Notes: generated by a model not told the origin, from the letters alone. A stretch of 64,000 nt of DNA from a virus (IMGVR_UViG_3300021399_000012:8053-72052), one strand, 5' to 3'. Positions 3,636 through 63,658 are shown, counted from the first letter of the stretch. Made by a program: numbers and translations.

Positions 3636-3833
3636 ATGGAAAAACTTATATTTAGTTGTGAGTTTCCAGCAGATTCCTCTGAAGCTGAGAGACTTACAGA
3701 TTGGTTAATCACAAATCGTGTTAGAAGAGTAGTTACATCATCTAGTTTCAAGAAGGGTGTTATATTCACATCATACTTTATAGAATGCACAAATAAAATG
3801 CAACTTAAAAGATTATTAGACCTTTTCGCATAA
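3636..3833 (+). CDS. Hypothetical protein (65 aa)
   Basis: ORF with AGGAG RBS. Confidence 0.7.
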   Translation: MEKLIFSCEFPADSSEAERLTDWLITNRVRRVVTSSSFKKGVIFTSYFIECTNKMQLKRLLDLFA

Positions 3834-3852
3834 TTTACAGTCCAGATTATAG
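3827..3852 (+). promoter_or_regulatory. Promoter-like motif copy 1 (consensus CGY-N6-T-N-C-N9-TATRR)
   Basis: CGCATAATTTACAGTCCAGATTATAG; same spacing in 21 copies. Confidence 0.75.
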
Positions 3853-3886
3853 GAAACAATAATTAATATTATTGGAGGGCGACATT

Positions 3887-4033: not shown

Positions 4034-4040
4034 TTCTTTT

Positions 4041-4066
4041 CGTATTATATTCAACCATGTATATAG
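4041..4066 (+). promoter_or_regulatory. Promoter-like motif copy 2
   Basis: CGTATTATATTCAACCATGTATATAG followed by GAGG RBS. Confidence 0.75.
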
Positions 4067-4079
4067 GAGGTGAAGTAAT

Positions 4080-4214
4080 ATGGTAAAGGCAAGAGAAAAT
4101 CTAAAAGCAAAAATTAGAGCGATGTATAACGCAGGATATAGTACTGGCGAAATAGCCAAGGAATTAAATATTGCAGAATACAAAGTTGTAAGGATGCTTG
4201 GGATATCATATTAA
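4080..4214 (+). CDS. Stand-alone helix-turn-helix protein (44 aa, not in ORF track)
   Basis: KIRAMYNAGYSTGEIAKELNIAEYKVVRML; GGAGG RBS; terminator follows. Confidence 0.7.
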   Translation: MVKARENLKAKIRAMYNAGYSTGEIAKELNIAEYKVVRMLGISY

Positions 4215-4272: not shown

Positions 4273-5466
4273 ATGGCCTTCGAATTATATCCGCATCAAG
4301 AAGCGGCGTTGAGAAAAATGAAAAACGGTTGCATTCTTAATGGCGGAGTTGGTAGTGGTAAGTCAATAACCGCAATAGCTTATTATTTTTTCAAGAACGG
4401 TGGAATCTATGAACATCATCACATGATGCCAATGGTTAAAAAGCAGTTTCTTGTAATCATAACGACTGCTAGAAAAAGAGATACCTTCGAATGGAATAAG
4501 GAGTTGTCACTTTTCGATCTATATGTCGAGAACGGAGACGCTGTTATAGATTCGTGGAATAACATAAAGAAGTATTCTGATATGAAAGATGCATTCTTTA
4601 TATTTGACGAGCAACGAGCTTCTGGATCAGGAGCTTGGGTAAAGGCATTCCTAAAGATCGCGAAATCTAATGAGTGGATACTGTTGTCAGCGACTCCTGG
4701 TGATTCATGGGTTGAATACGCTCCAGTTTTTGTGGCGAATGGTTTCTATAAAAACATAACCGAGTTTAAAAGAGAGCATGTTGTTATGAGTCATTACGGA
4801 GGATATCCAAAAATTGACAGGTATATAAATACTGTTCGATTGAATAAACTCAGGAGATCTATATTGGTTGATATGGATTTCAAGCGTAAGACTAATAGAG
4901 TGCACATAAACGTTTGGGTTCCTTGGGATAATGTAGCTTATAAAAGAGCTATAAAAACCAGGTTTAATGAGGAAACCGGTGAACCATTTAAGAACGCATC
5001 TGCATTATGTTATTATTTAAGAATGATTCTAAATAGTAATCCAGATCGCTTAGTCTTTACGTACGATATTCTTAAAGAAAAGAAGAAGGCTATTATATTC
5101 TACAATTTTGACTACGAGCTGTATATGCTTGAACAAATGCTAGATGAGTACTCTATACCATATGGAGAATGGAATGGACATCAACACAATCCGATTCCAG
5201 ATACTGACACATGGGCGTATTTAGTTCAGTACAATGCTGGCTCAGAAGGCTGGAATTGTACAAGATGCGATACAGTTATATTCTACAGTCAAAATTATTC
5301 ATACAAGATGACAGAACAAGCTTGCGGTAGAATAGACAGACTTAACACACCGTATAATAATTTATATTATTATCATTTGAAGTCTAAGGCCGGAATAGAC
5401 TTGGCAATAGCTAAAGCATTGAAAGATAAAAAGAATTTTAATGAGTCAGCTTGGACTTCGCAATAA
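4273..5466 (+). CDS. Superfamily 2 helicase
   Basis: Walker A GVGSGKS, DEQR, LSATPG, QACGRIDR motif VI. Confidence 0.9.
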   Translation: MAFELYPHQEAALRKMKNGCILNGGVGSGKSITAIAYYFFKNGGIYEHHHMMPMVKKQFLVIITTARKRDTFEWNKELSLFDLYVENGDAVIDSWNNIKKYSDMKDAFFIFDEQRASGSGAWVKAFLKIAKSNEWILLSATPGDSWVEYAPVFVANGFYKNITEFKREHVVMSHYGGYPKIDRYINTVRLNKLRRSILVDMDFKRKTNRVHINVWVPWDNVAYKRAIKTRFNEETGEPFKNASALCYYLRMILNSNPDRLVFTYDILKEKKKAIIFYNFDYELYMLEQMLDEYSIPYGEWNGHQHNPIPDTDTWAYLVQYNAGSEGWNCTRCDTVIFYSQNYSYKMTEQACGRIDRLNTPYNNLYYYHLKSKAGIDLAIAKALKDKKNFNESAWTSQ

Positions 5467-5484
5467 TTTCAACCTCTTATATGA
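5459..5484 (+). promoter_or_regulatory. Promoter-like motif copy 3
   Basis: CGCAATAATTTCAACCTCTTATATGA. Confidence 0.7.
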
Positions 5485-5556
5485 GAGGAAAATAAAAAAT
5501 TATTTGAACTTTTAAAGGTCTAGGGACTAGCTTATATTAGCAGTTTCTGGGCTTTT

Positions 5557-7453: not shown

Positions 7454-7455
7454 TT

Positions 7456-7481
7456 CGCAAGGTTTTCAACCATCTATATGG
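7456..7481 (+). promoter_or_regulatory. Promoter-like motif copy 5
   Basis: CGCAAGGTTTTCAACCATCTATATGG. Confidence 0.7.
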
Positions 7482-7515
7482 AATATTAATAAACATATAA
7501 ATGGAGGAAAACATT

Positions 7516-7747: not shown

Positions 7748-7754
7748 ACTTTTT

Positions 7755-7780
7755 CGCAATATTTACAGTTTCATATATGG
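7755..7780 (+). promoter_or_regulatory. Promoter-like motif copy 6
   Basis: CGCAATATTTACAGTTTCATATATGG. Confidence 0.75.
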
Positions 7781-7821
7781 AAAAATCAGCATTTTGCAAT
7801 GATGGTAAATTCATTACTACA

Positions 7822-22500: not shown

Positions 22501-22531
22501 ACTTGTCCGGGAAGGCCCAAAACTTGCCATT

Positions 22532-22557
22532 CGTTATATTTTCAGCGACATATATGG
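22532..22557 (+). promoter_or_regulatory. Promoter-like motif copy 9
   Basis: CGTTATATTTTCAGCGACATATATGG. Confidence 0.7.
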
Positions 22558-22585
22558 AAAATATGTCTGTAAGGAGGTAAACAGT

Positions 22586-22897: not shown

Positions 22898-22917
22898 TTG
22901 ACTCTCCTTTTCTTTTT

Positions 22918-22943
22918 CGCATTATCTTCAGGTGGATATATAG
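22918..22943 (+). promoter_or_regulatory. Promoter-like motif copy 10 (preceded by hairpin GAGTC-TTAATT-GACTC and a T-run)
   Basis: CGCATTATCTTCAGGTGGATATATAG. Confidence 0.75.
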
Positions 22944-22956
22944 GAGGTGAAGTATT

Positions 22957-23160: not shown

Positions 23161-23241
23161 ATATTAAACCAAGTATAGATCGTGATAATTTCATGGTCTA
23201 TATTTTTTTTTTGTCATTTTTCGACTTGCCAATCGTTACAA

Positions 23242-23267
23242 CGCGAAAATTTCAACCCCTAATATGA
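23242..23267 (+). promoter_or_regulatory. Promoter-like motif copy 11 (upstream of the nuclease-RNAP operon)
   Basis: CGCGAAAATTTCAACCCCTAATATGA. Confidence 0.65.
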
Positions 23268-23351
23268 GAGGAGAATAAAAATAGTCCGTTATTTTATAGA
23301 CTATTATATTCAGCCTCTTAATTTTTTGTTTACTGGGGGAACAATGCTGAT

Positions 23352-23672
23352 ATGAAAAACGAAAATAAATTTCAATCAGAGCTAATCGAAGAACTAAAAT
23401 CTTTATTTCCTGGATGCATTGTCCTGAAAAACGATCCTAATTATATTCAAGGTATACCAGATCTATTAGTGTTATACAAAAAGAAATGGGCTGCCTTAGA
23501 ATGTAAGAAAACAAAAAATGCAAAGCATAGACCTAATCAAGATTATTATGTTGATAAAATGTCTAAGATGTCATATGCAAATTTTGTTTATCCAGAAAAT
23601 AAGGAGGTAGTGTTAAGTGATCTGGAAAAATCATTCAAACCTAACAGGAAGACACGCAAAACTAAGTCCTAG
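23352..23672 (+). CDS. VRR-NUC-type PD-(D/E)xK nuclease (putative resolvase)
   Basis: E..FQ...GIPDL......ALECK. Confidence 0.8.
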   Translation: MKNENKFQSELIEELKSLFPGCIVLKNDPNYIQGIPDLLVLYKKKWAALECKKTKNAKHRPNQDYYVDKMSKMSYANFVYPENKEVVLSDLEKSFKPNRKTRKTKS

Positions 23673-24252
23673 TCAATCAGCTAGATGGGCTACAAAAGAT
23701 TTGGATAATGACGCCGTCTTTAAGATGATCAATTCTGGTTATTCTCAAGAGATCGGAACGTTACTGCATGAATACGCAGAACAATGTATCCGCTTTTCTT
23801 TAAAGATGACTAAGTATTCAAAGAGAGATGTTTTGAAGCATCTATTAATTAACAGGATTCCCAGAAACGTTGCTAACGAATATGTAGAAAGATGTTTTGA
23901 TAATCTTTTACTATATGTTAATGATGCTATTGGTTTCAGAATGGATCCTGAAGTAATATTATGGTATTCCGATTATATTTTTGGAACAGCAGATGCCATA
24001 ATGTTCAGAGATAACAAATTACAAATCCATGATTTAAAAACTGGAATAACTCCAGCACACATGGAACAATTATTAACATATGCAGCTCTATTCTGCTTAG
24101 AGTATAAAATTAAACCTGCAGACATTGATATAGAGTTGAGAATATATCAGTTAGAGGAGGTTATAGTCCATAAACCGGAAACAGATGAGATCGTTCCGAT
24201 TATAGACAAAATAGTCACATACAACAAGTGGCTGACTAAAGACTTAGATTAA
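23617..24252 (+). CDS. PD-(D/E)xK exonuclease-like protein (Cas4/DUF2800-like)
   Basis: HAKLSPS, GTLLHEYAE, FGTADAI, IHDLKTG. Confidence 0.75.
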   Translation: MIWKNHSNLTGRHAKLSPSQSARWATKDLDNDAVFKMINSGYSQEIGTLLHEYAEQCIRFSLKMTKYSKRDVLKHLLINRIPRNVANEYVERCFDNLLLYVNDAIGFRMDPEVILWYSDYIFGTADAIMFRDNKLQIHDLKTGITPAHMEQLLTYAALFCLEYKIKPADIDIELRIYQLEEVIVHKPETDEIVPIIDKIVTYNKWLTKDLD

Positions 24253-24272: not shown

Positions 24273-27200
24273 ATGGAAGAATTCTTTGATGATGATTTTG
24301 AAGAAGATTCAGAAGAATCGTTAATGCATTATGGCACTAAACGACATTCGGGAAGATACAAGTATGGATCTGGTGAGAATCCATATCAGCACGAAGCGTG
24401 GTTTGTGTGGAATTACAACACTATAAAAAAGAATAATTTTGGTATTAGCGATGATGATATCAGAAAAGCCATGGGATACACCGGCAATGGTGGAAAGGCT
24501 AAATTTAATAGAGAAAAAGAAAGAGCATTTGACAATATAAAGGATATTGCAGATGTTATCATGCAGAAAGAAGGTTATACTAGAGATTCAGAAGTTGCGA
24601 GAGCACTTGGTATGAGTTCAGGAGACCTTCGAGCATTAAAAGGTATAGCGAAAGCTAAACAAAATGAGGACCTTATGAGACGTAACTTACAGCTCGTAGA
24701 GCATGGTTACAGTTCTAGAAATAAAAGAGCGGAAATGCTCGGTATTCCAGAATCCACTTTAAGAAATATGGAAAAAGATGGATATATGGAAAGAAATTCT
24801 AAAGCATACAATGTTGCTGAAGAAATGAAGAAGTACATCAAAGATGATAAATCTTATTATGATGTCGGAAAAGGTATTAATTATTCATTGAACGTTTCTG
24901 AACACACGATGCAAGAAGCCCTTACAATTCTGAAGAATCAAGGTTACGGTGTTCATAACATACAGGTTCCTCAGGCCACAAATCCTGATCAGAAGACTAC
25001 GGTTTCCGTATTAGGTCCTCAAGGGGCTTCTTGGGCTGATACGATGAAGAATCAGAATAATATCAGCACTTTTGATATGTATTTTAATGATGATGGAAAA
25101 ACTAGAAGAGGCATCTATGAGCCAAAATCTATAGATTCATCTAGAATTAAGATACATTATGGTGATGAGCAGTTCCAGGGTACTTTAGGTACTGATATGG
25201 ATGGTGTTATACAGCTTCGTAGAGGAGTTGGAGACATATCATTAGGAAAAGCGTCATACGCTCAGGTTCGTATCATGGTTGATGGTACGCATTACTTAAA
25301 AGGTATGGCTATCTATTCTGATAATATGCCTGCTGGAAAAGACATCATCTTTAATACTAATAAGCCTAGTGGAACACCAGCTTCTAAAGTATTCAAAAGC
25401 TTAAAGACAGTCGACATCAAAGATGCGAATGGTAATGTTATCAAAACAGAAATTGATAAAGATAATCCTTTTGGAGCAAATATTAAAGCTGGTGGACAGA
25501 ACTTCTATAAAAATAAAAATGGTGAATATGTCCAGACATCTATTGATAATTTTGAGAAAGCAACAGCATCTAATATTAAGAAAAGTATAGATGGTGAAAG
25601 ATACTCATTATCTGCTGCGAATATTATCAAAGAAGAAGGAGATTGGAATCATTATCAAAAGAAGTTGGCTTCTCAGTTCTTATCTAAGCAGCCTATGGAA
25701 CTCATTAACAAACAGCTGAATTTAACATATGCTGACAAGAATGCTGAATTTGAAGAAATTAAGAGTTTAACAAACCCTACTATCAAAAGAAAACTTCTTG
25801 CAGACTTCGCTGAATCATGTGATAAAGCAGCTGTTGATTTAAAAGTAGCAGCTTTACCAGGACAAACAGCTAAAGTAATATTGCCTGTTACTGATCTTAA
25901 AGAAGGTGAATGCTATTGTCCTACTTATAAAGATGGTACTTATTTGGCATTGGTTAGATATCCACATGCTGGAACTTTCGAAATTCCTATTGTTAAAGTT
26001 AATAATAAGAACAAGCAAGGTCAATCTATAGTTGGTCCAAATGCGCAGGATGCTATCGGAATATCTGCAAAAGATGCAGAACAGCTTTCAGGAGCTGATT
26101 TTGATGGCGATACTGTAGTTTGTCTACCTACAACTAGAAAGCCTACAGCTAATGGTATCTATATTGCTAGTAGAAAGCCATTTGAATCTTTAAAGAACTT
26201 CTCTACAAATGAGTATGCTATCTCTGATGAAAGATTCAAAGCTACTGGAGAGTACATTTTAGGAAAGAATCCTTTAAAGACAGATACTGAGAAAGTAGCT
26301 AATCTTAAGAACAAGATAGCAAACGGTTATAAGCCTACTGAAGCCGACTTTATAGAAGTTGGTAAAGAAAAGCTTGTTATGACTGAAGATGCTAAGCAAA
26401 AGCAAATGGGTGTTGTATCTAACCTTATTACAGATATGACGTTAAAAGGTGCATCTCCAGATGAATTAGCAAGAGCTACAAAGGCTTCAATGGTCGTAAT
26501 CGATGCTGTAAAGCATGAACTTGATTACAAGCAAGCATATGAAGATTGCCGAATTCCTGAGTTAAAGAAGATCTATCAGAAAGAGTACAATGAAGAAACT
26601 GGTGAAACAACTGGTGGTGCTTCTACATTGATATCACGTTCTAAGTCAGAAGTGAGAATCAAAGAAAGAAAAGAAGGCTCTACTGATTACATTGATCCTA
26701 AAACAGGAGAAAAAGGAAAGGCTCGTATGTATTACGATCCGAATACCGGTAAGCGTATCTATACTGAGACTGGTAGAACCTATACCGATAAGAATGGTAA
26801 CGAGGTGGAGGCTCTTCAGAAAGTAACCCGTATGGCCTATGCGGACGATGCCATGGACCTGGTATCCCAAATGGGTACTCAACAGGAAAAGGCATATGCA
26901 AGATATGCAAATGCACTTAAAGAGATGGCTAGAGAAAGTAGAAAAGAACTCTACAAGACCGACCGTGCCGTATACGATAAGGATGCTAAAGAAAAGTATG
27001 CCATCCAGGTAGAAAGACTACAGTCTAAGCTAGAATTAGCAGTTGCTAACTCCCCTAGAGAAAGACAGGCCCAGATAGATGCTAATAAGACTATCAAGGA
27101 GGCCATTCAGAGAGATCCTTCTCTTAAAGATGACAAAGAGCATAATGCTAGACTTAGACAACAAGCCATAGCGGCATCCCGGGATAAGTATGGGGCCAAA

Positions 27201-27473
27201 GGTAAAGATACTAGAATTAAGATAGAAGATGATGAATGGGAAGCTATACAGGCTGGAGCTATATCGGATAGTAAATTAGAGGAGATACTGAAGTATTGCG
27301 ATCTAGATGTTCTTAGAGAACGTGCAATGCCAAAGACTCAAAAGACATTATCCAATGCTCAGGCAGCTAGAATTAAAGCTATGAAGAACTCAGGCTTTAC
27401 AATAGCTGAAATAGCTGAACAAATGTCGTTGTCAACATCAACAGTGTCAAAGTACATTAAAGAAGCTGCTTAA
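24273..27473 (+). CDS. Single-chain two-barrel (DPBB) RNA polymerase, probably virion-associated
   Basis: QVR...YLKG, RYPHAG and LSGADFDGD catalytic motifs; HTH-like segments near the N-terminus and at the C-terminus; acidic leader ending in LMH. Confidence 0.85.
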   Translation: MEEFFDDDFEEDSEESLMHYGTKRHSGRYKYGSGENPYQHEAWFVWNYNTIKKNNFGISDDDIRKAMGYTGNGGKAKFNREKERAFDNIKDIADVIMQKEGYTRDSEVARALGMSSGDLRALKGIAKAKQNEDLMRRNLQLVEHGYSSRNKRAEMLGIPESTLRNMEKDGYMERNSKAYNVAEEMKKYIKDDKSYYDVGKGINYSLNVSEHTMQEALTILKNQGYGVHNIQVPQATNPDQKTTVSVLGPQGASWADTMKNQNNISTFDMYFNDDGKTRRGIYEPKSIDSSRIKIHYGDEQFQGTLGTDMDGVIQLRRGVGDISLGKASYAQVRIMVDGTHYLKGMAIYSDNMPAGKDIIFNTNKPSGTPASKVFKSLKTVDIKDANGNVIKTEIDKDNPFGANIKAGGQNFYKNKNGEYVQTSIDNFEKATASNIKKSIDGERYSLSAANIIKEEGDWNHYQKKLASQFLSKQPMELINKQLNLTYADKNAEFEEIKSLTNPTIKRKLLADFAESCDKAAVDLKVAALPGQTAKVILPVTDLKEGECYCPTYKDGTYLALVRYPHAGTFEIPIVKVNNKNKQGQSIVGPNAQDAIGISAKDAEQLSGADFDGDTVVCLPTTRKPTANGIYIASRKPFESLKNFSTNEYAISDERFKATGEYILGKNPLKTDTEKVANLKNKIANGYKPTEADFIEVGKEKLVMTEDAKQKQMGVVSNLITDMTLKGASPDELARATKASMVVIDAVKHELDYKQAYEDCRIPELKKIYQKEYNEETGETTGGASTLISRSKSEVRIKERKEGSTDYIDPKTGEKGKARMYYDPNTGKRIYTETGRTYTDKNGNEVEALQKVTRMAYADDAMDLVSQMGTQQEKAYARYANALKEMARESRKELYKTDRAVYDKDAKEKYAIQVERLQSKLELAVANSPRERQAQIDANKTIKEAIQRDPSLKDDKEHNARLRQQAIAASRDKYGAKGKDTRIKIEDDEWEAIQAGAISDSKLEEILKYCDLDVLRERAMPKTQKTLSNAQAARIKAMKNSGFTIAEIAEQMSLSTSTVSKYIKEAA

Positions 27474-27501
27474 TTAAAGTTTGAGAAAGGAGAAAAATTA
27501 A

Positions 27502-27744
27502 ATGGCTAAAGCTTATATGTTAACAACAGTTGATAATCCATTCAATCCTTTTGAAGACTTTGAGAAATGGTATCAGTTTGATGAGGAAAAAGGTTATCAT
27601 TCATGTCAAAGATTGGCAAGATTCACAAACAATTCAGATTTCATGTCTGATGCTGAGCAAAGAGAAGATCAATCACAAGCAATTGATAAAATTATTGCTT
27701 TAGACTTTACAAATTTGTATAAAAAAGTTTCTAAAGATCTTTGA
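27502..27744 (+). CDS. Hypothetical protein downstream of the RNAP gene (80 aa)
   Basis: AAGGAG RBS; YMLTTVDNPFNPF motif. Confidence 0.75.
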   Translation: MAKAYMLTTVDNPFNPFEDFEKWYQFDEEKGYHSCQRLARFTNNSDFMSDAEQREDQSQAIDKIIALDFTNLYKKVSKDL

Positions 27745-27880
27745 TTGACTCATTGAATGAATCATTTCTAAATTAAAAAGAAGATTGTTGTGTGATTTAA
27801 TATTTATTTTGGATTCTTCTTTCTGTTTTCATTCTTTTGGTTGGCACACTGAGGCTAATCGGATATAAAAAGAATGGACA

Positions 27881-27950
27881 GGGGGAGGGGTCCGCTAAAT
27901 ATACACCCCCTCCTATATCGCGGCGGTCTTAAAAAATTCTCCGGAGGGAT
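27881..27950. other. GC-rich island upstream of the terminase genes; candidate cos/packaging site
   Basis: GGAGGGG...CCCCTCC inverted repeat and CGCGGCGG in an AT-rich intergenic region upstream of terS and HNH. Confidence 0.4.
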
Positions 27951-27961
27951 ATTTTTAAAAC

Positions 27962-28071
27962 TTATATCGGTATTAGTACTGGGCATTTAAGCGTGAACGC
28001 GTGGAAAAATCCCCCAGCTAAAAAGTACACCATAAGTAATGCTTAAGTGCTCAGTACTGATACTGATATAA
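27962..28071 (+). ncRNA. 33-bp stem-loop in the leader of the packaging operon
   Basis: All five non-Watson-Crick positions are G.U on the + strand; 44-nt loop. Confidence 0.55.
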
Positions 28072-28102
28072 ATTATATATCAGGTAAAAGGAGTGAAAAC
28101 TA

Positions 28103-28444
28103 TTGGGAAAGGCTAAGCAAACTAGTGATGGTTTTGAGGCTAAGACTCGTCCAGCGTTGTCTCCAGAAGCAAAACAAGCTCAATTGATAGGTTTAGCCAT
28201 GGATAATGTCGAACGACGTCTAAGAGAGAACAAAGCCTCAGCTCAAGAGATCATTCACTTTTTAAAATTAGGTACAGTCCAGGCAGAATTGGACTTAGAG
28301 AGAGCAAAATTAGAAAACGAATTAGTAAAAGCTAAAACAGAATCACTTCAGTCGGCAGCAAAGATGGAAGAAACATATACGAAAGCTCTAGAAGCTATGC
28401 GAAGATATTCTGGACATGGGGACGAAGAGGATGAGAACATATAG
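28103..28444 (+). CDS. Putative terminase small subunit
   Basis: Position before HNH and terL; helical 113-aa protein; TTG start with GGAG RBS. Confidence 0.6.
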   Translation: MGKAKQTSDGFEAKTRPALSPEAKQAQLIGLAMDNVERRLRENKASAQEIIHFLKLGTVQAELDLERAKLENELVKAKTESLQSAAKMEETYTKALEAMRRYSGHGDEEDENI

Positions 28445-28841
28445 CGAGTTAATACAAATACCAACTTTCGAAGAAAGACTATTATATTTAAAGTTAGATT
28501 CGAAAGTAGGATTCACAACATTTGGTGGTAACCGATACATGAATCAGCAATTCTATAATTCTAAAGAATGGAAAGATATTTGTAGCTTTGTGATAACTCG
28601 TGATAATGGATGTGATCTAGGCGTTAAAGGATACGAATTGTTTGATGATATTTTAGTTCATCATATGAATCCTATAAACGTTGATGACATAAGATTCTCA
28701 ACACCGTTTCTTTTAGATCCGGAATATTTAATTTCTACATCTCGTAGAACTCACAACGATATACATTATGGTAATGACACAATTATATCTAGAGAACCAA
28801 TCATTAGAAAACCGAATGACACGATTCCTTGGAAACAATAA
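28431..28841 (+). CDS. HNH endonuclease (packaging-associated)
   Basis: RDNGCD...VHHMNP...HNDIH. Confidence 0.8.
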   Translation: MRTYSELIQIPTFEERLLYLKLDSKVGFTTFGGNRYMNQQFYNSKEWKDICSFVITRDNGCDLGVKGYELFDDILVHHMNPINVDDIRFSTPFLLDPEYLISTSRRTHNDIHYGNDTIISREPIIRKPNDTIPWKQ

Positions 28842-28853
28842 TGTTTAATAGGA

Positions 28854-29675
28854 GTGACCTATATGAGTGAACAATATTTAGCCCATCATGGCATACGAGG
28901 TCAAAAATGGGGAAAGAAAAATGGTCCCCCTTATCCTTTAGATTGGACCGATCATTCTACAGCAGAAAAGAAAGAACTGACTAAGGATGAAATACGTGCC
29001 ATGACTGAGGACATGGATGAAGTTACAAACTTCAACAAGAGAGTAGCTGTGTACTATGATACAAAGATGGAAGTCAATAAATCGCAGGCACAGTATCTCG
29101 ATAGTAAGAAAACCGCAGGAGAAAAATTCAAAGAGAATCTCAAGAATAAATTAACCAGCGGAATTATCGACGGATTGAGCAAAGGTGCTTCAAAAGCTGT
29201 TGAAACATCCATAAACAACATCACTGATGAATTATGGAAGAGAGCGAGAGAGCAGATGGATCCAGAAGGCGAAGCTATGAAAGCTAAGACTGCTGAACTG
29301 GAAAGAAAGAATGCTTTATCGAAAGCACAAAGCGAATACGATCGATACAAGAAAGAAAAAGAGAACAAGCAGGTAAACGATGTGTTATCTAAGCTTGACC
29401 TAGAAGACAAATTACGTAAAGCAACACAAGCGAAAGAAGACGCTTCTTATTATAGAGAAAAAGAACTTGCAAATAGAGCAAGGGAAGAAGCCGAGACAAA
29501 GGCTAAAACTCAGGAAGCTCTTAATAAGCTTGCTAAAGCAGAATATGAGCGTGATTTAATGTCAAACGACCCATCTAAGTTCTTTAGTAATGATAAAAAA
29601 TCAAAAGGTTCATCAGACAGTCTATCAGAAGATGACGTACGTAGAATAGCTAAAGAAATAATGGATGAGATGTAA
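28854..29675 (+). CDS. Putative internal head protein with LAH-HGIRGQKWG motif (273 aa)
   Basis: YLAHHGIRGQKWGKKNGPPYPL followed by a Lys/Glu-rich coiled coil. Confidence 0.7.
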   Translation: MTYMSEQYLAHHGIRGQKWGKKNGPPYPLDWTDHSTAEKKELTKDEIRAMTEDMDEVTNFNKRVAVYYDTKMEVNKSQAQYLDSKKTAGEKFKENLKNKLTSGIIDGLSKGASKAVETSINNITDELWKRAREQMDPEGEAMKAKTAELERKNALSKAQSEYDRYKKEKENKQVNDVLSKLDLEDKLRKATQAKEDASYYREKELANRAREEAETKAKTQEALNKLAKAEYERDLMSNDPSKFFSNDKKSKGSSDSLSEDDVRRIAKEIMDEM

Positions 29676-29704
29676 AAAAAATCAAAATACGGGGGTAAAT
29701 AGAA

Positions 29705-31456: not shown

Positions 31457-32266
31457 ATGGAAAGAGCAGAGTTTTATTCAGCACTATATGATTCTAATAA
31501 TTATTTAGAGCATCATGGTGTTGATGGACAGAAATGGGGTAAACGTAATGGACCTCCATATCCATTGAATTCCGAGGGTAAAGCAAGTCTGAAGAAACAG
31601 AGAAAAGCTGAGAAATTAAATACCGAGAATAAATTAGCATATGAACAATATAAATATGCTGGAAGAGCGAATACTGCATATAATGTTAAAGTGGCAGGTC
31701 GTGTAGCAGCTCCTGTTGGAGGTATAATTGGAGCTGGTATAGGTAGCACGGTAGGACCTGAAGGCACTGTATTAGGCACAATAGCCGGACTTGCAATAGC
31801 TGATCTTGGTGCGTCAGCAACCTCTGGTATTATTAATCTCGGTATGAATGCAGTAAGAAATAGCAAGTATAAAAAAGCTCTCATAGAGTCGCAGAAACGT
31901 GCAGAAGATGATTTGGATAGACTTATGATATCGAAAAAATACAAACCAAATCTCGATAGCGGTGGTGATTTTATGACAAAGACAATTAATGGTGTTGAGA
32001 TTGATGTCGATTATACATACGACGCAGATCGTAACCGTATCGCAAAAAATGTCCAAAAATTAGAACCTAAGGTTGGATATATAAATGATCAGTTCACAAA
32101 GGAGTTGAAAGATAATGGCTATGGTGCACTTGTGAATAATAAAAGACATATGTATATATCAGATACAGTTTGCGAGATAGGTACCTATCACGACGGCCAT
32201 GACTATTCAACATATATAAACGAAGAAAATGGTAAAATTGAAAAAGGCATTATGATGAATGGTTAA
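31457..32266 (+). CDS. Putative internal head/ejection protein with LEH-HGVDGQKWG motif and Gly-rich hydrophobic hairpin (269 aa)
   Basis: 19-aa leader; GGIIGAGIG...GTIAGLAIA segment. Confidence 0.7.
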   Translation: MERAEFYSALYDSNNYLEHHGVDGQKWGKRNGPPYPLNSEGKASLKKQRKAEKLNTENKLAYEQYKYAGRANTAYNVKVAGRVAAPVGGIIGAGIGSTVGPEGTVLGTIAGLAIADLGASATSGIINLGMNAVRNSKYKKALIESQKRAEDDLDRLMISKKYKPNLDSGGDFMTKTINGVEIDVDYTYDADRNRIAKNVQKLEPKVGYINDQFTKELKDNGYGALVNNKRHMYISDTVCEIGTYHDGHDYSTYINEENGKIEKGIMMNG

Positions 32267-32325: not shown

Positions 32326-32700
32326 ATGAATGAATCAATATTATCTACTATAAAAGATATGCTAGATGTTGATGTTGACCCAGAAGAAGATGAAATTGGA
32401 GAATTCGACAATATATTAATTATTAATATTAATACAGTGTTCTCCATATTAAATCAAATGGGAGTGGGCACAGATGAACCATTTGTTATTACGGGCTATG
32501 ATGAGACATGGGACCAATTTATAGGAGAAGCTGTAGGTATTGAAATGGTGAAAACTTATATTTACTTAAAAGTAAAGATGATGTTCGATCCACCATCAGG
32601 AGCCCAAAAAGAAGCAAATGAAAATGTAATTAAAGAACTGGAATATAGACTATATGTTCTGGAAGATCTTAGAAAAGGAGCGATGAATAATGAATCGTGA
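32326..32700 (+). CDS. Putative head-tail adaptor/connector (124 aa)
   Basis: SIL.TIK.ML...FD..L...IN.VFS.L.Q.GVG...FDPP pattern typical of this module; remote assignment. Confidence 0.55.
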   Translation: MNESILSTIKDMLDVDVDPEEDEIGEFDNILIININTVFSILNQMGVGTDEPFVITGYDETWDQFIGEAVGIEMVKTYIYLKVKMMFDPPSGAQKEANENVIKELEYRLYVLEDLRKGAMNNES

Positions 32701-33061
32701 TGATTACTTCTCTAAATTAAGTAAATCTAAGAATGCATTGTCTCACGGAATGATGACTGCGGAACCCGTAGAGAGAGTCTACGTACCAGTGGTAAAAAAT
32801 GAGTCGTCTGACGCTGAAATAAAGAAGATGATTTCTAATTACGAGAAAGATATCGCAGCTAGAAAGTCTAAGTTAAAAGAACTTAGAGACAAACAGGAAG
32901 AACTCCGTGCTAATATGGAGTCCACACGAAATCTTTTAACAAGAATGGATGACGAAATGTCCGAGTTATCAAATCAGGTTGGCATTGTGAAAGATAGGAT
33001 ACTGGAAGACAATGCAAAGATTGATACTCTTCAATCATCCCTTAGAATTTTAGGAAAATAG
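32690..33061 (+). CDS. Coiled-coil protein with the 19-aa L-x-H leader (123 aa)
   Basis: MNRDDYFSKLSKSKNALSH-G. Confidence 0.7.
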   Translation: MNRDDYFSKLSKSKNALSHGMMTAEPVERVYVPVVKNESSDAEIKKMISNYEKDIAARKSKLKELRDKQEELRANMESTRNLLTRMDDEMSELSNQVGIVKDRILEDNAKIDTLQSSLRILGK

Positions 33062-33080: not shown

Positions 33081-34100
33081 ATGGATAGACGAGAATTCTA
33101 TTCTAACTTAGCTGATTCTAGAGAAGCTTTAGAACATGCTGAAGGTTTTCAGAGAGCAAATCACAAATACATAAATCGTTTCCGTGGTAGAAATGGTAAA
33201 TGGATTTACGAGTATGCTGAAGATCTGAAAGAGAAGGCTAATTCTACAGCTGCTAAAGCTAAGAAATCGCTAGGCTCTGCAGGAAATGATGCTAAGAAAA
33301 CATTAGACTCTGCAGGGGATAATGCTAAGAAAACATTGGCCAAAGCAAAAACTCGAGTGTCGAAAGGCATGAATATGGCTTCTAAATTTGGATCTGCTAA
33401 GCTTAAAGAACTGTCGAAAACCAGCGACACAGCAGTCGCAAAAGGAAAGTATCATTTAGCTAATCTAAAAAATAAAGTAGAAAAACCAACAGCTCCAGAA
33501 GAGTGGGAAAAATATGGCAAATATCAACGCGAATATGAAACTAAACAGGCTCGTATTGGCAAAGCCAGAGATCGTATGCATAAAATAGAAGCCGGTCACC
33601 ATACGTCTGATAAAAAGGCTGATAGAAAAGAACGTCTTAAGAACGTACAAAATGATTACAGTGTAGTCGGAAATGCTAACAAACAGCGCCAATTCATTGA
33701 AAATCAAGAATACGTAGAGAAAAAGCGACAAGAAGCCAAAAAGGCAAAAGAGAAAGATCGTAAAGATCGTATAGAATATAAAAAAGAAGCTGCACAAGAA
33801 GAAAGACTCGGTACTACATATGACAAGGCGCTCGATTCTATTTTCGATAAGACTGTTCGTGATAATAAAGAAAGATCACGACAGGCAAGTGCTAAAGATA
33901 CTCCTAAGGAGTATAAAGAAGAATACATATTTAACACTGGTAGTGGGTCTGATCAAGACATTCTTATAAACCTTAAGAGACAGGAAGACAGAGATAAGCT
34001 ATTAACAGCTAAAAAACGTGATGAAGCTGCTGCTCATAAGAAATATCTTGAAAAAATGCGTAGAGAACGTAATAGACAACGTCGTAACGATCGTACCTAA
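33081..34100 (+). CDS. Highly basic putative internal head protein with the 19-aa L-x-H leader (339 aa)
   Basis: MDRREFYSNLADSREALEH-A; HKYI....RNGKWIYEY; Lys/Arg-rich. Confidence 0.7.
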   Translation: MDRREFYSNLADSREALEHAEGFQRANHKYINRFRGRNGKWIYEYAEDLKEKANSTAAKAKKSLGSAGNDAKKTLDSAGDNAKKTLAKAKTRVSKGMNMASKFGSAKLKELSKTSDTAVAKGKYHLANLKNKVEKPTAPEEWEKYGKYQREYETKQARIGKARDRMHKIEAGHHTSDKKADRKERLKNVQNDYSVVGNANKQRQFIENQEYVEKKRQEAKKAKEKDRKDRIEYKKEAAQEERLGTTYDKALDSIFDKTVRDNKERSRQASAKDTPKEYKEEYIFNTGSGSDQDILINLKRQEDRDKLLTAKKRDEAAAHKKYLEKMRRERNRQRRNDRT

Positions 34101-34124: not shown

Positions 34125-35441
34125 ATGCCAGCATTTACAGACAGACTGGCACATGCTTGGAACGCGTTCTTAAATAAAGACTCTACTGATTATTATGGCG
34201 GTCGAGAACTATCAAACTCCTTTGAGTATGGTTCTAACTTTAGACCTGACAGGCCTAGATTCACCAGAGGCAATGAGCGATCGATACTTACATCTATATA
34301 CAATAGAATGGCTTTGGATTGTGCATCAGTCGACATACAGCATGTCCAACTTGATGAAAACAATCGTTATGTATCGACTATTGATTCTGGATTGAATAAT
34401 TGCCTGACAGTCGAAGCAAACATAGATCAGACTGGAAGAGCATTTAGACAAGATATTTATATGTCTATGTTTGATGAAGGGTGCGTCGCAATCGTGGCTA
34501 CTGACACAGACATAAACCCTTTAGACACATCATCATATGATATACTGAGCATGCGAACTGGAAAAGTTACAGCGTGGTATCCAAAGCATGTAAGGGTTAA
34601 ATTGTATGATGAGAATACAGCATCCCACAGAGAAGTTGTATTGCCAAAGTCTAAGGTCGCGATAATAGAAAATCCATTTTATGCAGTAATGAATGAACCT
34701 AATTCTACTCTGCAGCGTTTAAAACGTAAATTGGTGCTCATAGATCAAATAGACGAACAAGCAGGTGCTAATAAATTAGACTTGATAATTCAATTGCCGT
34801 ATGTTGTTAAATCACAGGCAAGAAAACAGCAAGCAGAAGAACGTCGAGCAGAAATCGAAAATCAGCTTGCTAACGGTAAATATGGTATCGCATACACTGA
34901 CGGTACCGAACATATAACACAGCTAAATAGGTCGGTCGATAACCAACTGTTATCACAGATCGAATATTTAACAAATCAGTTGTATAGTCAATTAGGCATG
35001 ACAACTGCAATATTAGACGGTACTGCTGATGAAAGAACAATGCTAAACTATAACAACAGAGTTATAGAAGTATGTGTCTCAGCAGTAGTTGATGAGTTTA
35101 AGCGTACGTTCTTAACAAAGACGGCTAGAACTCAGAAAAAATCAATCATGTTCTTCAGAGATCCATTCAGACTTGTTCCTGTTGATAATCTTGCCGATAT
35201 CGCAGATAAGTTCACAAGAAATGAGATCCTTTCTTCTAATGAAGTTAGACAGATTATAGGTCTTAAGCCTATCAACGATCCGAAAGCAGACGAGTTAAGA
35301 AACAAGAATCTAAACGTCGCTGAAGGTCAAGAATACGCAACGACCAATCCTACTGCGCAGGTTGAGGGAAGTGCTGAAGAAACAGAAAATTATGATGCAG
35401 AAAACATGGCTCAAATGCCAGCATCATTATTTAACCAGTAA
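34125..35441 (+). CDS. Portal protein
   Basis: Position, size (438 aa) and HK97-type portal features. Confidence 0.85.
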   Translation: MPAFTDRLAHAWNAFLNKDSTDYYGGRELSNSFEYGSNFRPDRPRFTRGNERSILTSIYNRMALDCASVDIQHVQLDENNRYVSTIDSGLNNCLTVEANIDQTGRAFRQDIYMSMFDEGCVAIVATDTDINPLDTSSYDILSMRTGKVTAWYPKHVRVKLYDENTASHREVVLPKSKVAIIENPFYAVMNEPNSTLQRLKRKLVLIDQIDEQAGANKLDLIIQLPYVVKSQARKQQAEERRAEIENQLANGKYGIAYTDGTEHITQLNRSVDNQLLSQIEYLTNQLYSQLGMTTAILDGTADERTMLNYNNRVIEVCVSAVVDEFKRTFLTKTARTQKKSIMFFRDPFRLVPVDNLADIADKFTRNEILSSNEVRQIIGLKPINDPKADELRNKNLNVAEGQEYATTNPTAQVEGSAEETENYDAENMAQMPASLFNQ

Positions 35442-35459: not shown

Positions 35460-37361
35460 ATGGGATCAAAATATGATTTCGGTGGTTACGCTACTCGAAA
35501 TGATCTCCGTTGCTCTGATGGTCGAATCATTAGACATAATGCATTTATCGATAATGACGGCCAGGTTGTAGCATTAATGTGGAATCACAAGCATGATACT
35601 ATTGATTCTGTAATCGGTCACGCATTGCTTGAAAATAGAGAAGATGGCGTTTACGCTTATTGTTCTCTTAATGATTCTCCAGGAGCTGACAAAGCTCGTA
35701 GTGCTATTAAACATGGTGATATAGATTCATTATCTATATATGCAAACCATTTGAAGCAGAATGGCAACAATGTCATTCATGGAGTTATTCGAGAAGTAAG
35801 CTTAGTTTTGGCAGGAGCGAATCCTGGTGCTCGTATCGACACCGTTATGATTCACTCTGATGCTGAAGACGGTGAGGAGGCAGAGATTTTTATGCATTCA
35901 CAAATGGATATCTTCAACGACGATCTTGCTGATGATATGTTAGATGACGACATCATGCATGCTGACAGTGACGATGAAGATGAAAAAGGAGAGACTGTCG
36001 AAGATGTGTTTAACACATTGACAGAAAAGCAGAAGAAAGTCGTTTATGCGATAATTGGGCAAGCAATTCAGGACGCAAAGGCTGGAAAATCTGCAAAGCA
36101 TTCTGACGAGGATGAAGGAGATGACGATGTTATCGCTCATGCTGAAATGGAGCTGGGTGACGACGCTACAGTCGAAGATGTATTTAATACATTGAATGAA
36201 ACTCAGAAGAATGTAGTTTATGCGCTTATCGGCCAGGCGTTAGAAGAGGCTGAAATTCAACATTCAGATTATGAAGGAGACTACGAAATGAAAGAAAATG
36301 TTTTTGATACTGATAGTGTTATGACAACAACTTTGTCACACGCAGATATTGAAGAGATTATGGATGACGCAAAGCGCTACGGTTCCCTTAAGGATTCTGT
36401 ACTTGCGCATGCAGCTGATTATGGTATTGAGAATATCGGAACATTGTTCCCATATGAGCCAGAAGATGGTAAGTTACTTAATGACCCATCATTTATTCAG
36501 AGAGATGACAGCTGGGTTCCTAAGGTTGTTCAGGGTGCTCATCACTCACCATTCTCTAGAGTAAAGTCTATCTTTGCTAACATCACAGAGGATGAAGCAA
36601 GAGCTAAGGGTTACATTAAGGGCCACCTGAAGAAGGAAGAGGTATTCCCACTCTTGAAGAGAGCTACTTCTCCTACAACAATCTACAAGAAGCAGAAGCT
36701 CGATAGAGATGATATTGTAGATATTACAGATTTCAATGTTGTTAACTTTATTAAGGGTGAGATGAAGATCATGCTTAATGAGGAAATCGGTAGAGCTATC
36801 CTGGTTGGAGACGGTAGAGCTGCATCTGATGAAGATAAGATTTCTGAGCTTAACATTCGTCCAATCTGGACAGATCATGAGTTGTACACAATTACTCAGA
36901 CGGTTCCATTAGCAGCTAATACTAAAGATGATGATAAGGCTAAGGCTATCGAGAGAGCTGCTGTAAAGGCACGTAAGAACTACAAGGGTTCAGGAAATCC
37001 TACATTCTTCACAACAGAAGATGTTCTTACAGACATGCTGCTTCGTGAGGATACTACAGGACGTAAGATCTACTCATCTATCAACGAGCTTGCTACAGCT
37101 CTTAGAGTTAAGGAGATCGTTACAGTTCCAGTAATGGAAGGCCTTACAAGAGAAGTTGGTGGTAAGACACATACACTTCAGGGTATTATCGTTAATATGA
37201 ACGATTACAATATCGGTGCTGATAAGGGCGGAGAGCTTAACATGTTCGACGACTTCGATATCGATTACAACCAGCAGAAGTACTTGATTGAGACTCGTAT
37301 CTCAGGTGCTTTGGTTAAGCCATACTCTGCAATCGTAATTGAGACAGTACCAGCTGCCTAA
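35460..37361 (+). CDS. Prohead protease-scaffold-major capsid protein fusion (internal MCP start likely at 36288)
   Basis: N-terminal HK97-type protease (WNH, SLSIYA), acidic repeat scaffold, C-terminal capsid domain; GAAGGAGA RBS before in-frame ATG 36288. Confidence 0.85.
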   Translation: MGSKYDFGGYATRNDLRCSDGRIIRHNAFIDNDGQVVALMWNHKHDTIDSVIGHALLENREDGVYAYCSLNDSPGADKARSAIKHGDIDSLSIYANHLKQNGNNVIHGVIREVSLVLAGANPGARIDTVMIHSDAEDGEEAEIFMHSQMDIFNDDLADDMLDDDIMHADSDDEDEKGETVEDVFNTLTEKQKKVVYAIIGQAIQDAKAGKSAKHSDEDEGDDDVIAHAEMELGDDATVEDVFNTLNETQKNVVYALIGQALEEAEIQHSDYEGDYEMKENVFDTDSVMTTTLSHADIEEIMDDAKRYGSLKDSVLAHAADYGIENIGTLFPYEPEDGKLLNDPSFIQRDDSWVPKVVQGAHHSPFSRVKSIFANITEDEARAKGYIKGHLKKEEVFPLLKRATSPTTIYKKQKLDRDDIVDITDFNVVNFIKGEMKIMLNEEIGRAILVGDGRAASDEDKISELNIRPIWTDHELYTITQTVPLAANTKDDDKAKAIERAAVKARKNYKGSGNPTFFTTEDVLTDMLLREDTTGRKIYSSINELATALRVKEIVTVPVMEGLTREVGGKTHTLQGIIVNMNDYNIGADKGGELNMFDDFDIDYNQQKYLIETRISGALVKPYSAIVIETVPAA

Positions 37362-61510: not shown

Positions 61511-61612
61511 ATTGTTTAGTGCTATAATTTCAACTCCTATTTACTTTTTCGCAATATTTACAATGTATATTATGAGAAACTAGGTAACTAGAAATATAGG
61601 AGGAATTATATT

Positions 61613-61723: not shown

Positions 61724-61784
61724 TCGGCCTCCTATTTTTTTTTTTCGTATTATATTCTGGCTATTATATAGGAGGTGATACATT

Positions 61785-61931: not shown

Positions 61932-61961
61932 GTCTGATTAATTTCAGACCCTTTCTTTTTT
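61930..61961 (+). terminator. Intrinsic terminator, near-duplicated at 62303-62334
   Basis: GTCTGA/TCAGAC stem with T-run; 31 of 32 nt identical between copies. Confidence 0.75.
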
Positions 61962-62033
61962 CGCAATTTTTACAGACTTCTATATGAGGAAATAAGCAGT
62001 AATGCTTAAAGGATTCACATAATTACTGGTTCA

Positions 62034-62062: not shown

Positions 62063-62107
62063 ACTTTTTCGTAATTTATTCAGGTAGATATATAGGAGGT
62101 GAAAACA

Positions 62108-62314: not shown

Positions 62315-62378
62315 TTTCAGACCCTTTCTTTTTTTTTTTTCGTAATTTATTCAGGTAGATATATAGGAGGTGAATGAT

Positions 62379-62642: not shown

Positions 62643-62735
62643 CAAGGACTGTTCTTTTTTTTCGCAATTTTTGCAATGTATATTATGAGAAATAAACATT
62701 ATAGTTTAAACGAAAGGATTAAAAAGGTGATAACT

Positions 62736-62962: not shown

Positions 62963-63045
62963 ACTTTTCGCAATTTTTACAAACTCCTATATGAGATAAA
63001 CAATCATATGTTAAATCCGCTTTATGCGGTAGAAGGAGTATTATT

Positions 63046-63282: not shown

Positions 63283-63382
63283 AACACAAGGTTGGGTGAG
63301 CCTTTAATTCACCCTTTCTTTTTTTTCGCATTATATTCAGGTTTATATATGGAAATAAGAAAGCATTAAGGAGGTAAATATT

Positions 63383-63612: not shown

Positions 63613-63658
63613 CTTTTTCGCATTATATTCAGGTGAATATATAGGAGGTGATTCAATT

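Follow-up and report, generated by a model that had tools for sequence, protein, structure and literature searches.

The subject of this study is a gene found in the viral DNA stretch IMGVR_UViG_3300021399_000012:8053-72052, hereafter the window, whose 64,000 nucleotides belong to a viral genome that is complete at 72,052 bp, with a G+C content of 36% and a 127-bp terminal repeat. The gene is an uninterrupted open reading frame (ORF) of the + strand (24273..27473; unless otherwise indicated, this and all subsequent positions are those of the window) and encodes a 1066-amino acid protein which belongs to PHROG 4291, a family labelled "RNA-dependent RNA polymerase" (E 2.1e-297, residues 91-1064), and whose predicted fold matches that of QDE-1; on these grounds it is identified as a putative single-chain two-barrel RNA polymerase. 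The sequence motifs from which the original prediction of such an enzyme was derived are all present, namely YAQVR at residues 329-333, YLKGMA at 341-346, VRYPHAG at 561-567 and LSGADFDGD at 605-613, together with the helix-turn-helix (HTH)-like segments SEVARALGMS (106-115) and RAEMLGIPESTL (151-162), a further HTH at the C-terminus (~1041-1061) and the tripeptide L-M-H at residues 17-19.

The conservation of these motifs was analyzed in an alignment of 36 rows consisting of the polymerase and 35 homologues 47-52% identical to it. The catalytic residues Q331, R333, K343, G344, R562, P564, H565, D609, D611, G612 and D613 are invariant, and chance matches are thereby excluded. The catalytic loop D-F-D-G-D (residues 609-613; 26097..26111), which is found in 36 of 36 rows and in five distant phages as well, occupies the position of the triad of YonO that has been proven to be essential (PMC5467207). 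The R-x-P motif is represented by the invariant R562-Y-P564-H565, located 47 residues ahead of the triad, the equivalent residues of Rpb1 being R446 and P448 (PMC2919709). The basic pair is formed by the invariant R333 and K343-G344, to which R265 and K270-G271 correspond in YonO, and can be equated to K979 and K987 of Rpb2, the first position being occupied here by Arg instead of Lys. Finally, D310-G311 is also invariant and lies at the offset expected for D709 of QDE-1 and D837 of Rpb2 (model residue 286 corresponding to QDE-1 684); judging from this alignment offset, D310 may be the fourth acidic residue, equivalent to D709 of QDE-1.

With its 1066 amino acids the polymerase is longer than nearly all the relatives seen, these having 881-971 residues in the 36-row alignment, 1029 in the case of orf75 of phage 1706 and 878-1062 among the top representatives; the exception is its own 99%-identical copy. 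The 147 extra residues are accounted for by loop insertions at 60-104, 422-437, 657-696 and 806-820, which are modelled mostly as low-confidence loops. The 99%-identical copy aside, the polymerase is at most 45% identical to any other protein.

The AlphaFold2 model built from the 36-row alignment has a predicted local distance difference test score (pLDDT) of 76, which rises to ~90 around the motifs, and a predicted template modelling score (pTM) of 0.68. When this model was compared with the PDB by Foldseek, the top match was QDE-1 (E 1.3e-6, probability 1.0), followed by gp62 of P74 and gp64 of P32 (~1e-4), gp96 of P23-45 and plant RDR2. Superposition by VIA-align yielded Z scores of 11.2-11.5 for QDE-1, with 360-384 aligned residues (model 282-897 corresponding to QDE-1 680-1188, a range that includes both D709 and the DYDGD loop of the latter), 10.3 for P74 gp62 and 9.8 for RDR2. 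The first, β-like double-psi barrel is assigned to residues ~286-420 (25128..25532) by the alignment with QDE-1, which starts at 684 of the latter, and by the invariant residues D310-G311, Q331-x-R333 and K343-G344 that it contains. The second, β′-like barrel (residues 527-636; 25851..26180) contains R562-x-P564-H565; model residues 527-635 can be fitted at 1.9-2.4 Å to double-psi barrels that occur as isolated domains (p97-N and a designed barrel), and the barrel also matches that of Rpb1 with Z 9-10.

A relationship to characterized enzymes is less apparent at the level of sequence. The Pfam family RdRP is matched by 25 of the 36 family members (best E 8.5e-6), Pfam applied to the polymerase alone detects only the HTH, and searches of the PDB sequences with phmmer and with the 36-row profile returned HTH-type or chance matches and no polymerase. 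A comparison by hhalign between the family profile, which is shallow (Neff, the effective number of sequences, is 2.3), and the YonO sequence gave a probability of 0.2%. Nevertheless, YonO displays the three motif blocks in the same order, the distance from K-G to R-x-P-H being 219 residues here and 222 in YonO and that from R-x-P to D-x-D-G-D 47 and 43 residues, respectively. Since motif order and spacing are what the two proteins have in common, the polymerase is placed in the enzyme class of YonO, a DNA-dependent RNA polymerase with a catalytic triad (PMC5467207), but not in the YonO family. The model resembles QDE-1 and the two-barrel phage RNA polymerases, and profile comparison reveals no similarity to YonO. 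Overall, predicted fold, invariant catalytic motifs and YonO-like spacing support the claim of a single-chain two-barrel RNA polymerase, so that the two-barrel identity can be considered established as far as prediction can go, and DNA-dependent RNA synthesis appears to be the likely activity of the modelled enzyme.

The catalytic core is flanked by three modules with predicted DNA-binding folds. The N-terminal HTH region (residues 101-169; 24573..24779), supported by fold superposition and weak Pfam matches, contains both HTH-like segments quoted above. In a model of residues 1-285 alone (pLDDT 77), residues 115-169 superpose on the tri-helical HTHs of AraC, TetR and Ada at 1.3-1.8 Å; the second quoted segment falls inside this tri-helical HTH, and weak matches to the MerR and Xre families of Pfam are found at residues 141-172, whereas the first segment (101-122) fits the family-consensus HTH pattern by sequence only. 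This region is followed by a predicted winged-helix domain (residues 170-256; 24780..25040), whose structural matches are GntR-family DNA-binding domains, the TFIIIC eWH and the Rpc34 WH (Z 5.5-7.2, 63-87 residues aligned). At the opposite end of the protein, the C-terminal HTH (residues 1024-1065; 27342..27467) resembles σ70 region 4; it matches numerous HTH models of Pfam, among them HTH_24 with 24.1 bits, which is over the cut-off of this model, and Sigma70_r4 and Sigma70_r4_2 with 22.3 and 22.6 bits as compared to cut-offs of 24.1 and 25.7, respectively. Furthermore, Sigma70_r4_2 is matched by all 36 family members, with a best E of 4e-12. To judge from these profile matches, the C-terminus carries an HTH of the σ4 type, from which neither common descent with σ factors nor reading of a -35 box follows. 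The premise that the HTH-like segments correspond to real DNA-binding folds has therefore held at the C-terminus through Pfam and at the N-terminus through the predicted fold, with the qualification just given for the first segment. The genome encodes no σ70 region 2, and its sole σ4-like match is the C-terminus of the polymerase itself.

The portion of the polymerase that precedes these modules is the most conserved of the whole protein. Following an acidic leader of 16 amino acids, residues 17-40 (24321..24392) form what will be referred to as the N-terminal tag, L-M-H-Y-G...G-R-Y-x-Y-G-S-G-x-N-P-Y-Q-H, in which L17, H19, G21, S26-Y29, G32-G34, P37 and Q39 are invariant in the 36-row alignment. 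Among five distant phages 50% of the tag residues are invariant, as compared to 34% and 29% for the two barrels, and the database alignments of the polymerase all start at residue 17. In every genome examined the polymerase displays L-x-H-Y-G-x-x-R-K-S-G-R-Y-P-W-G-S-G.

In the genome, six ORFs have L-x-H within their first 25 residues, and all six are located in the block extending from the polymerase to the portal gene. Aside from the polymerase, these are a 273-amino acid head-module protein encoded upstream of the terminase (28854..29675; tag L-A-H-H-G...K-W-G; DUF7211 below threshold, E 5e-4), which is the positional counterpart of orf7 of phage 1706; a 269-amino acid head-module protein (31457..32266) with a 19-residue leader and the tag L-E-H-H-G...K-W-G (DUF7211 below cut-off, E 1.5e-5; L17-x-H19); two proteins recognized by their N-terminal sequence as having the same 19-residue leader, namely a 123-amino acid coiled-coil protein in which it ends with L-S-H (32690..33061) and a 339-amino acid protein in which it ends with L-E-H (33081..34100); and the portal protein (34125..35441; phrog_12, PF04860), having L-A-H-A at residues 8-11. 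The combination of L17-x-H19 with Ser13 occurs in four ORFs (the polymerase and those starting at 31457, 32690 and 33081) as compared to 0.18 expected, and in the ORFs starting at 28854 and 31457 the sequence after L-x-H continues with H-G-[VI]-x-G-Q-K-W-G. The next gene (35460..37361; phrog_3270, PF04586, PF05065) encodes a fusion of prohead protease (S78), linker and HK97-type capsid protein, in whose linker L-x-H-[AS] is repeated. Several aligned h-L-x-H-[AS] sites are present in the protease-capsid linker of five phages out of five, the last L-x-H-[AS] site directly adjoining the start of the conserved capsid core, at the place at which cleavage would be expected to occur during maturation. 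As a side observation, a module of ~35 residues (T-V-E-D-V-F-N-T-L...V-V-Y-A-x-I-G-Q-A) is duplicated in tandem at residues ~195-290 of this fusion protein and is single in four relatives.

The tag of the polymerase is reminiscent of DUF7211, a 25-residue Pfam model reading L-x-H-Y-G-V-x-G-M-K-W-G. The N-terminus of the polymerase gave no match to this model at E <= 1, but it can be aligned with DUF7211-type N-termini, by hand or with MAFFT, if a 4-residue insertion is allowed; in terms of sequence it is accordingly best described as a related variant of the DUF7211 motif and not as a member by the model. Starts of the type L-x-H-Y-G-V-x-G-M-K-W-G are found in three Circum proteins encoded close to the genes for terminase and portal and in four DrGrey proteins, and the tag is common to 1-4 head-module proteins in the present genome, 1706, Circum and DrGrey and to none in FP_oengus. 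In 1706 the tag is carried by orf7, which immediately precedes the terminase, and by the polymerase orf75. Both are labelled "structural protein" in the record, even though orf75 lies at a great distance from the morphogenesis block, several ORFs of which do not bear this label. In light of these sequence features it is plausible that the capsid-fused protease acts at L-x-H and that the tag identifies proteins to be loaded into the procapsid.

A second feature that could be linked to the polymerase is a 30-bp promoter-like element, TTTT-TCGCA-N5-TWCA-N6-TATAT-G-R. Scanning with a position weight matrix (PWM) revealed 23 unique copies. Every one of them is on the + strand, the - strand having none, and the exact core is matched nine times as compared to 0.16 expected. 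The copies are concentrated at both genome ends, ahead of small early genes, with three others at 22530, 22916 and 23240; the 38 kb occupied by the polymerase, structural and lysis genes are devoid of them. At the left end, copies detected by the PWM are located at 3825..3853 (early region) and 4039..4067, copies detected by exact core and PWM at 5457..5485, 7454..7482 and 7753..7781, and a weaker PWM copy at 12077..12105. The right-end early cluster comprises the PWM copies 61548..61576, 61744..61772, 62068..62096 and 62339..62367, a weaker one at 62661..62689, and the copies detected by both exact core and PWM at 61960..61988, 62967..62995, 63325..63353, 63617..63645 and 63944..63972, the last being within the 127-bp terminal repeat. 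As to the three remaining copies, the one at 22530..22558 is weaker (PWM score 23), that at 22916..22944 is strong (score 52), and a diverged one (23240..23268), with CGCG and AATAT in place of the consensus boxes and recognized by eye, lies directly ahead of the operon whose last gene is the polymerase and is preceded by a terminator-like hairpin (23171-23205).

In six copies (those at 4039, 22916, 61744, 62068, 62339 and 63617) a Shine-Dalgarno (SD) sequence begins immediately after TATAT, the start codon being 16-17 nucleotides further downstream. Since the SD sequence abuts the box, an RNA carrying the ribosome binding site cannot have its 5' end beyond the last position of the box, a situation that does not fit a -10 hexamer located ~7 nucleotides upstream of the start. 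Sites resembling those of σ70 occur in the genome at chance level (42 found and 42.0 expected). A 44-amino acid ORF just behind a strong copy of the element (4080-4214, i.e., 12132-12266 of the genome) displays a very weak σ4/HTH-like match (E 0.02) and, judging from this, may encode a small early DNA-binding protein.

Corresponding elements were found in the four relatives examined (4/4), which span two host phyla: TCRCA-N5-TACA-N5-TATAG-TAG in 1706 (10 copies), TCGCG-N5-TACA-N5-TATAAT in Circum (8-9 copies), TCGCA-N5-TACA-N5-TATART-GAGA in DrGrey (10 copies), whose G+C content is 59.5%, and CGCG-N5-TACA-N6-TTTAT-GG in FP_oengus (11 copies). They align without gaps and lie on the coding strand at the start of the early arm; the copies of FP_oengus and most of those of 1706 were detected through repeated words, and their first or last boxes differ. 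The distance between first and last box is 14-15 bp in all five genomes, and the A2 and T6 of a -10 hexamer are missing from the last box of FP_oengus and of the present genome. The element is absent from SPβ, used as control. In DrGrey (positions 26922-30638 of its genome) most copies are preceded by a conserved hairpin, to the end of which is joined T-T-G-G-G-T-T-T-C-G, and this hairpin-element unit is a terminator-promoter cassette like the arrangement seen here.

The co-occurrence of element and polymerase was analyzed by scanning 2.9 million IMG/VR viral contigs with a 29-nucleotide pattern of the subtype found in this genome, which yielded 15 contigs, 11 of which could be searched for the gene. 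The polymerase is encoded in five of these 11 and in three of the five near-complete ones, as compared to ~0.5% of phage genomes; the subtype contigs contain 1-3 exact copies each and a pattern of this length should produce a few matches by chance, so that these figures show enrichment and are no measure of exclusivity.

The polymerase gene is located at the end of the early/replication arm, just ahead of the packaging genes. The operon begins with an endonuclease gene (23352..23672; phrog_93, E 3e-17), followed by a Cas4/RecB-type exonuclease gene (23617..24252; phrog_3953, E 1e-60) which adjoins the polymerase and is its upstream neighbor also in Circum, DrGrey and FP_oengus. Immediately after the polymerase gene comes a small ORF of 80 amino acids (27502..27744; phrog_4303, E 7e-33), which is likewise found in 1706, Circum, DrGrey and FP_oengus. 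The neighborhood is hence that of the family, with the exonuclease upstream, the small ORF downstream and a position beside the genome end or the packaging genes.

A separate late promoter was not identified, but another word, TCAAAAT-R-G, occurs on the + strand exclusively in the late structural arm, at 30549, 35455, 37388, 38770, 39987, 45128, 50137, 51011 and 59689, i.e., in nine copies as compared to two on the other strand and 1.6 expected. A similar strand bias is seen in FP_oengus (18 versus 2), Circum (8 versus 0) and DrGrey (4 versus 0), but not in 1706. The contexts are mixed (intergenic, intragenic, or overlapping start or stop codons), and the word could represent either a late signal or a translation context.

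The family to which the polymerase belongs has been described computationally on two occasions. Ruprich-Robert and Thuriaux (2010) listed the 1706 protein among five families of YonO-like two-barrel polymerases (PMC2919709), and Koert et al. (2021) reported this very family, noting its DxDGD loop and an HTH at either end, as a signature gene of a supercluster of Actinobacteria and Firmicutes phages (bioRxiv 10.1101/842583). In the present analysis megablast of the polymerase gene gave no match among deposited phages, whereas tblastn detected full-length relatives at 33-40% identity in 250 deposited phage genomes (~0.5% of phage records), the hosts of which include Arthrobacter, Gordonia, Streptomyces, Microbacterium, Rhodococcus, Lactococcus (1706, P078) and Faecalibacterium (FP_oengus). 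These relatives are labelled RNA-dependent RNA polymerase, HTH DNA-binding protein, structural protein or hypothetical. The family comprises >7,800 clusters at 90% identity and 1,218 at 50% identity (E <= 1e-30). With this abundance and two prior descriptions, the original assessment that such an enzyme is uncommon among characterized phages cannot be maintained; the polymerase is an additional member of a computationally described family, the enzyme itself being uncharacterized.

The explanation that we consider to account best for these data, and to which we assign a probability of about 0.6, is that the protein is a DNA-dependent two-barrel RNA polymerase that reads its promoter without a σ factor and is delivered by the virion. 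The enzyme would be packed into the procapsid late in infection by virtue of its L-x-H-Y-G...W-G tag, possibly be trimmed after His19 by the capsid-fused protease, and enter the cell with the DNA to start early transcription, as do the virion polymerases of N4, crAss-like phages and P23-45. Its HTH and winged-helix modules would bind the 30-bp element unaided by σ, RNA synthesis beginning at or just after the TATAT-G box; the early genes would thereby be expressed, and the diverged copy at 23240 would provide for further polymerase. Since the polymerase operon itself lies behind a promoter of this class, an initial supply of enzyme needs some other source. The individual steps of this scheme do not carry the same weight. 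That the polymerase recognizes the element by itself seems somewhat more probable than the contrary, given the sequence evidence; the idea of a built-in promoter reader, already contained in the original prediction, is consistent with an element linked to the family and with the lack of a σ gene. Packaging into the virion, likewise part of the original prediction and supported circumstantially by the conserved tag, by its presence in head-module proteins and by the label of the 1706 orthologue, is favored to a similarly slight extent, while cleavage after His19 by the head protease, suggested by the sequence of the putative sites, is a tentative proposal that we would rate at somewhat below even odds. 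Still more tentative, although possible, is the complete picture of a self-sufficient injected transcription machine in which an N-terminal code loads the enzyme, the capsid-fused protease cuts it and the fused modules find the 30-bp promoter to ensure σ-independent early expression.

Several considerations weigh against this explanation. A literature search retrieved no experimental paper, biochemical or virological, on the PHROG 4291 family, nor anything relevant on the sequence of the element, on DUF7211 or on the K-W-G motif. The tie to characterized enzymes consists of the predicted fold and short motifs, since sequence searches miss YonO and the solved RNA polymerases. The structural matches of the N-terminal HTH and winged helix are modest (Z 5-7), although all those listed are DNA-binding domains, and the argument from phage 1706 depends on what its label "structural protein" was meant to convey. 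In addition, the host RNA polymerase could read the element, the last box of which is a perfect TATAAT in actinophage, and a linear record that is 94% complete carries two good copies of the element and no polymerase gene; the gene may simply be missing from this record because in the family it sits at the very end of the genome.

The last two points are also those expected if the enzyme were a YonO-like transcriptase not present in the virion, the host RNA polymerase reading the 30-bp element to express both the early genes and the polymerase, and the phage enzyme serving middle or late (structural) genes by way of a different signal. Such a division of labor would resemble that of SPβ, in which YonO transcribes only the late genes (PMC5467207), would suit a gene placed at the end of the early/replication arm just before the packaging genes, and would offer in the co-oriented TCAAAAT-R-G of the late arms a possible real target of the enzyme. 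We regard this alternative as unlikely in view of the architecture of the element: from the phages of Lactococcus, Faecalibacterium, Arthrobacter and Streptomyces to the present one TCGCA and TATA are 14-15 bp apart and not 17, the A2 and T6 hallmarks are missing from the last box here and in FP_oengus, the SD sequence abuts the box and σ70-like sites are no more frequent than by chance. Nor would a transcriptase remaining outside the virion account for a conserved N-terminal tag shared with head-module proteins or, provided that the label is meaningful, for the 1706 orthologue being recorded as a structural protein. A quite improbable alternative, suggested by QDE-1 being the best structural match, by the RdRP matches in 25 of 36 members, by the database name "RNA-dependent RNA polymerase" and by the constant proximity of an exonuclease gene that forms part of the module for replication and recombination, is that of a QDE-1-like polymerase acting on RNA or on both types of template and producing antisense RNA, double-stranded RNA or primers instead of mRNA. 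Yet three DNA-binding modules are predicted to be fused to the core, YonO, which has the same motif geometry, is strictly DNA-dependent (PMC5467207), the phage enzymes of the P23-45 type score nearly as high as QDE-1, and the gene is accompanied by a promoter-like DNA element specific to the family. As to the possibility that the protein is a catalytically idle DNA-binding or structural protein, "helix-turn-helix DNA-binding domain protein" is indeed the commonest label in deposited genomes, found in most actinophage records, and the HTH is all that Pfam sees in the polymerase; however, triad, R-x-P-H and basic pair are invariant in the 36-row alignment and in five phages of two host phyla, and since such conservation would not be expected of an inactive relic, this possibility is very improbable.

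When the polymerase is compared with known systems, its full-length homologues are found to be orf75 of 1706, AUV56548 of FP_oengus and the proteins of actinophage clusters AM, AU, BI, DJ, CC and EL, with which it shares the catalytic motifs, the HTHs at both ends, the N-terminal tag, the gene order exonuclease-polymerase-small ORF and, in the head module, the protease-capsid fusion; the genomes of these relatives measure 51-62 kb as compared to 72 kb here. YonO of the Bacillus prophage SPβ is likewise a single-chain two-barrel enzyme with the three motif blocks in order, encoded by a siphovirus-type phage, but its sequence lacks the HTH-flanked layout, the tag and any detectable profile similarity, and it is a late-gene transcriptase, not known to be packaged, whose promoter is undefined. 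The best structural matches across the whole catalytic core are provided by QDE-1 of Neurospora crassa and plant RDR2 (PDB 2j7n, 7y7q, 7roz; Z 11.5 and 9.8, 340-384 residues, 10-16% identity); unlike what is proposed here, these eukaryotic silencing enzymes act on RNA or on both template types and have neither HTH modules nor promoter-directed initiation. The virion and non-virion two-barrel RNA polymerases of Thermus phage P23-45, namely gp96, which is fused to the tape measure, and the gp64 type (PDB 8h2m, 8f72, 8f5m; PMC10770324), are, as is gp66 of phi14:2, small two-barrel cores encoded by phages, Z being 10.1-10.3 between the gp64 type and the model. In P23-45, in the crAss-like phage phi14:2 (gp66) and in N4 an injected polymerase acts on phage-specific early promoters, a mode of action that in the present case is only proposed. 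Furthermore, the present enzyme, to which HTHs and a short N-terminal tag are fused, is a protein on its own and neither part of the tape measure nor a giant polyprotein. The N4 virion RNA polymerase, having an unrelated fold, is a functional analogue only.

Among extant enzymes, none are better models of the ancestor from which the cellular RNA polymerases derive than the single-chain two-barrel polymerases, and those studied are few (YonO, QDE-1, crAss gp66 and the P23-45 enzymes). The PHROG 4291 family is far larger, comprising ~1,200 clusters at 50% identity; hundreds of phages carrying it are in culture and have known hosts, and its proteins are still called DNA-binding protein or RNA-dependent polymerase in most records. 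If the enzyme does read its own promoter through the fused HTHs, it would represent a minimal, σ-free, promoter-specific two-barrel enzyme, informative for the evolution of promoter recognition and of use as a compact orthogonal transcription tool, and the shared N-terminal tag may define a general code for cargo loading and cleavage in HK97-type capsids with a fused protease. An injected machine, were it to be real, could explain how the lineage came to cross phyla and why its G+C content is unlike that of its hosts, and its promoter would have remained nearly unchanged from gut Firmicutes phages to Streptomyces phages. The gain from this particular genome is modest, consisting of one divergent and unusually long member in a complete genome showing every proposed part.

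Finally, two minor observations concern the organization of the genome. After the small ORF that follows the polymerase there is a 358-bp non-coding gap (27745-28102) in which inverted blocks rich in G/C are found (a run of G5-A-G4 together with the complementary sequence). The physical genome end of 1706, Circum and DrGrey is at the equivalent position and, because of this synteny, that of the present genome is probably in the gap as well; the terminal repeat of the assembly lies away from it. The gap may thus be a cos or packaging site, in which case the 127-bp repeat would be an assembly feature. In addition, the words AGACCTTAGCAAGTCT and TAAACTGCTAAA are repeated 8-10 times throughout the genome, on the + strand only or nearly so, with at most one reverse-complement copy of a few 10-mers.

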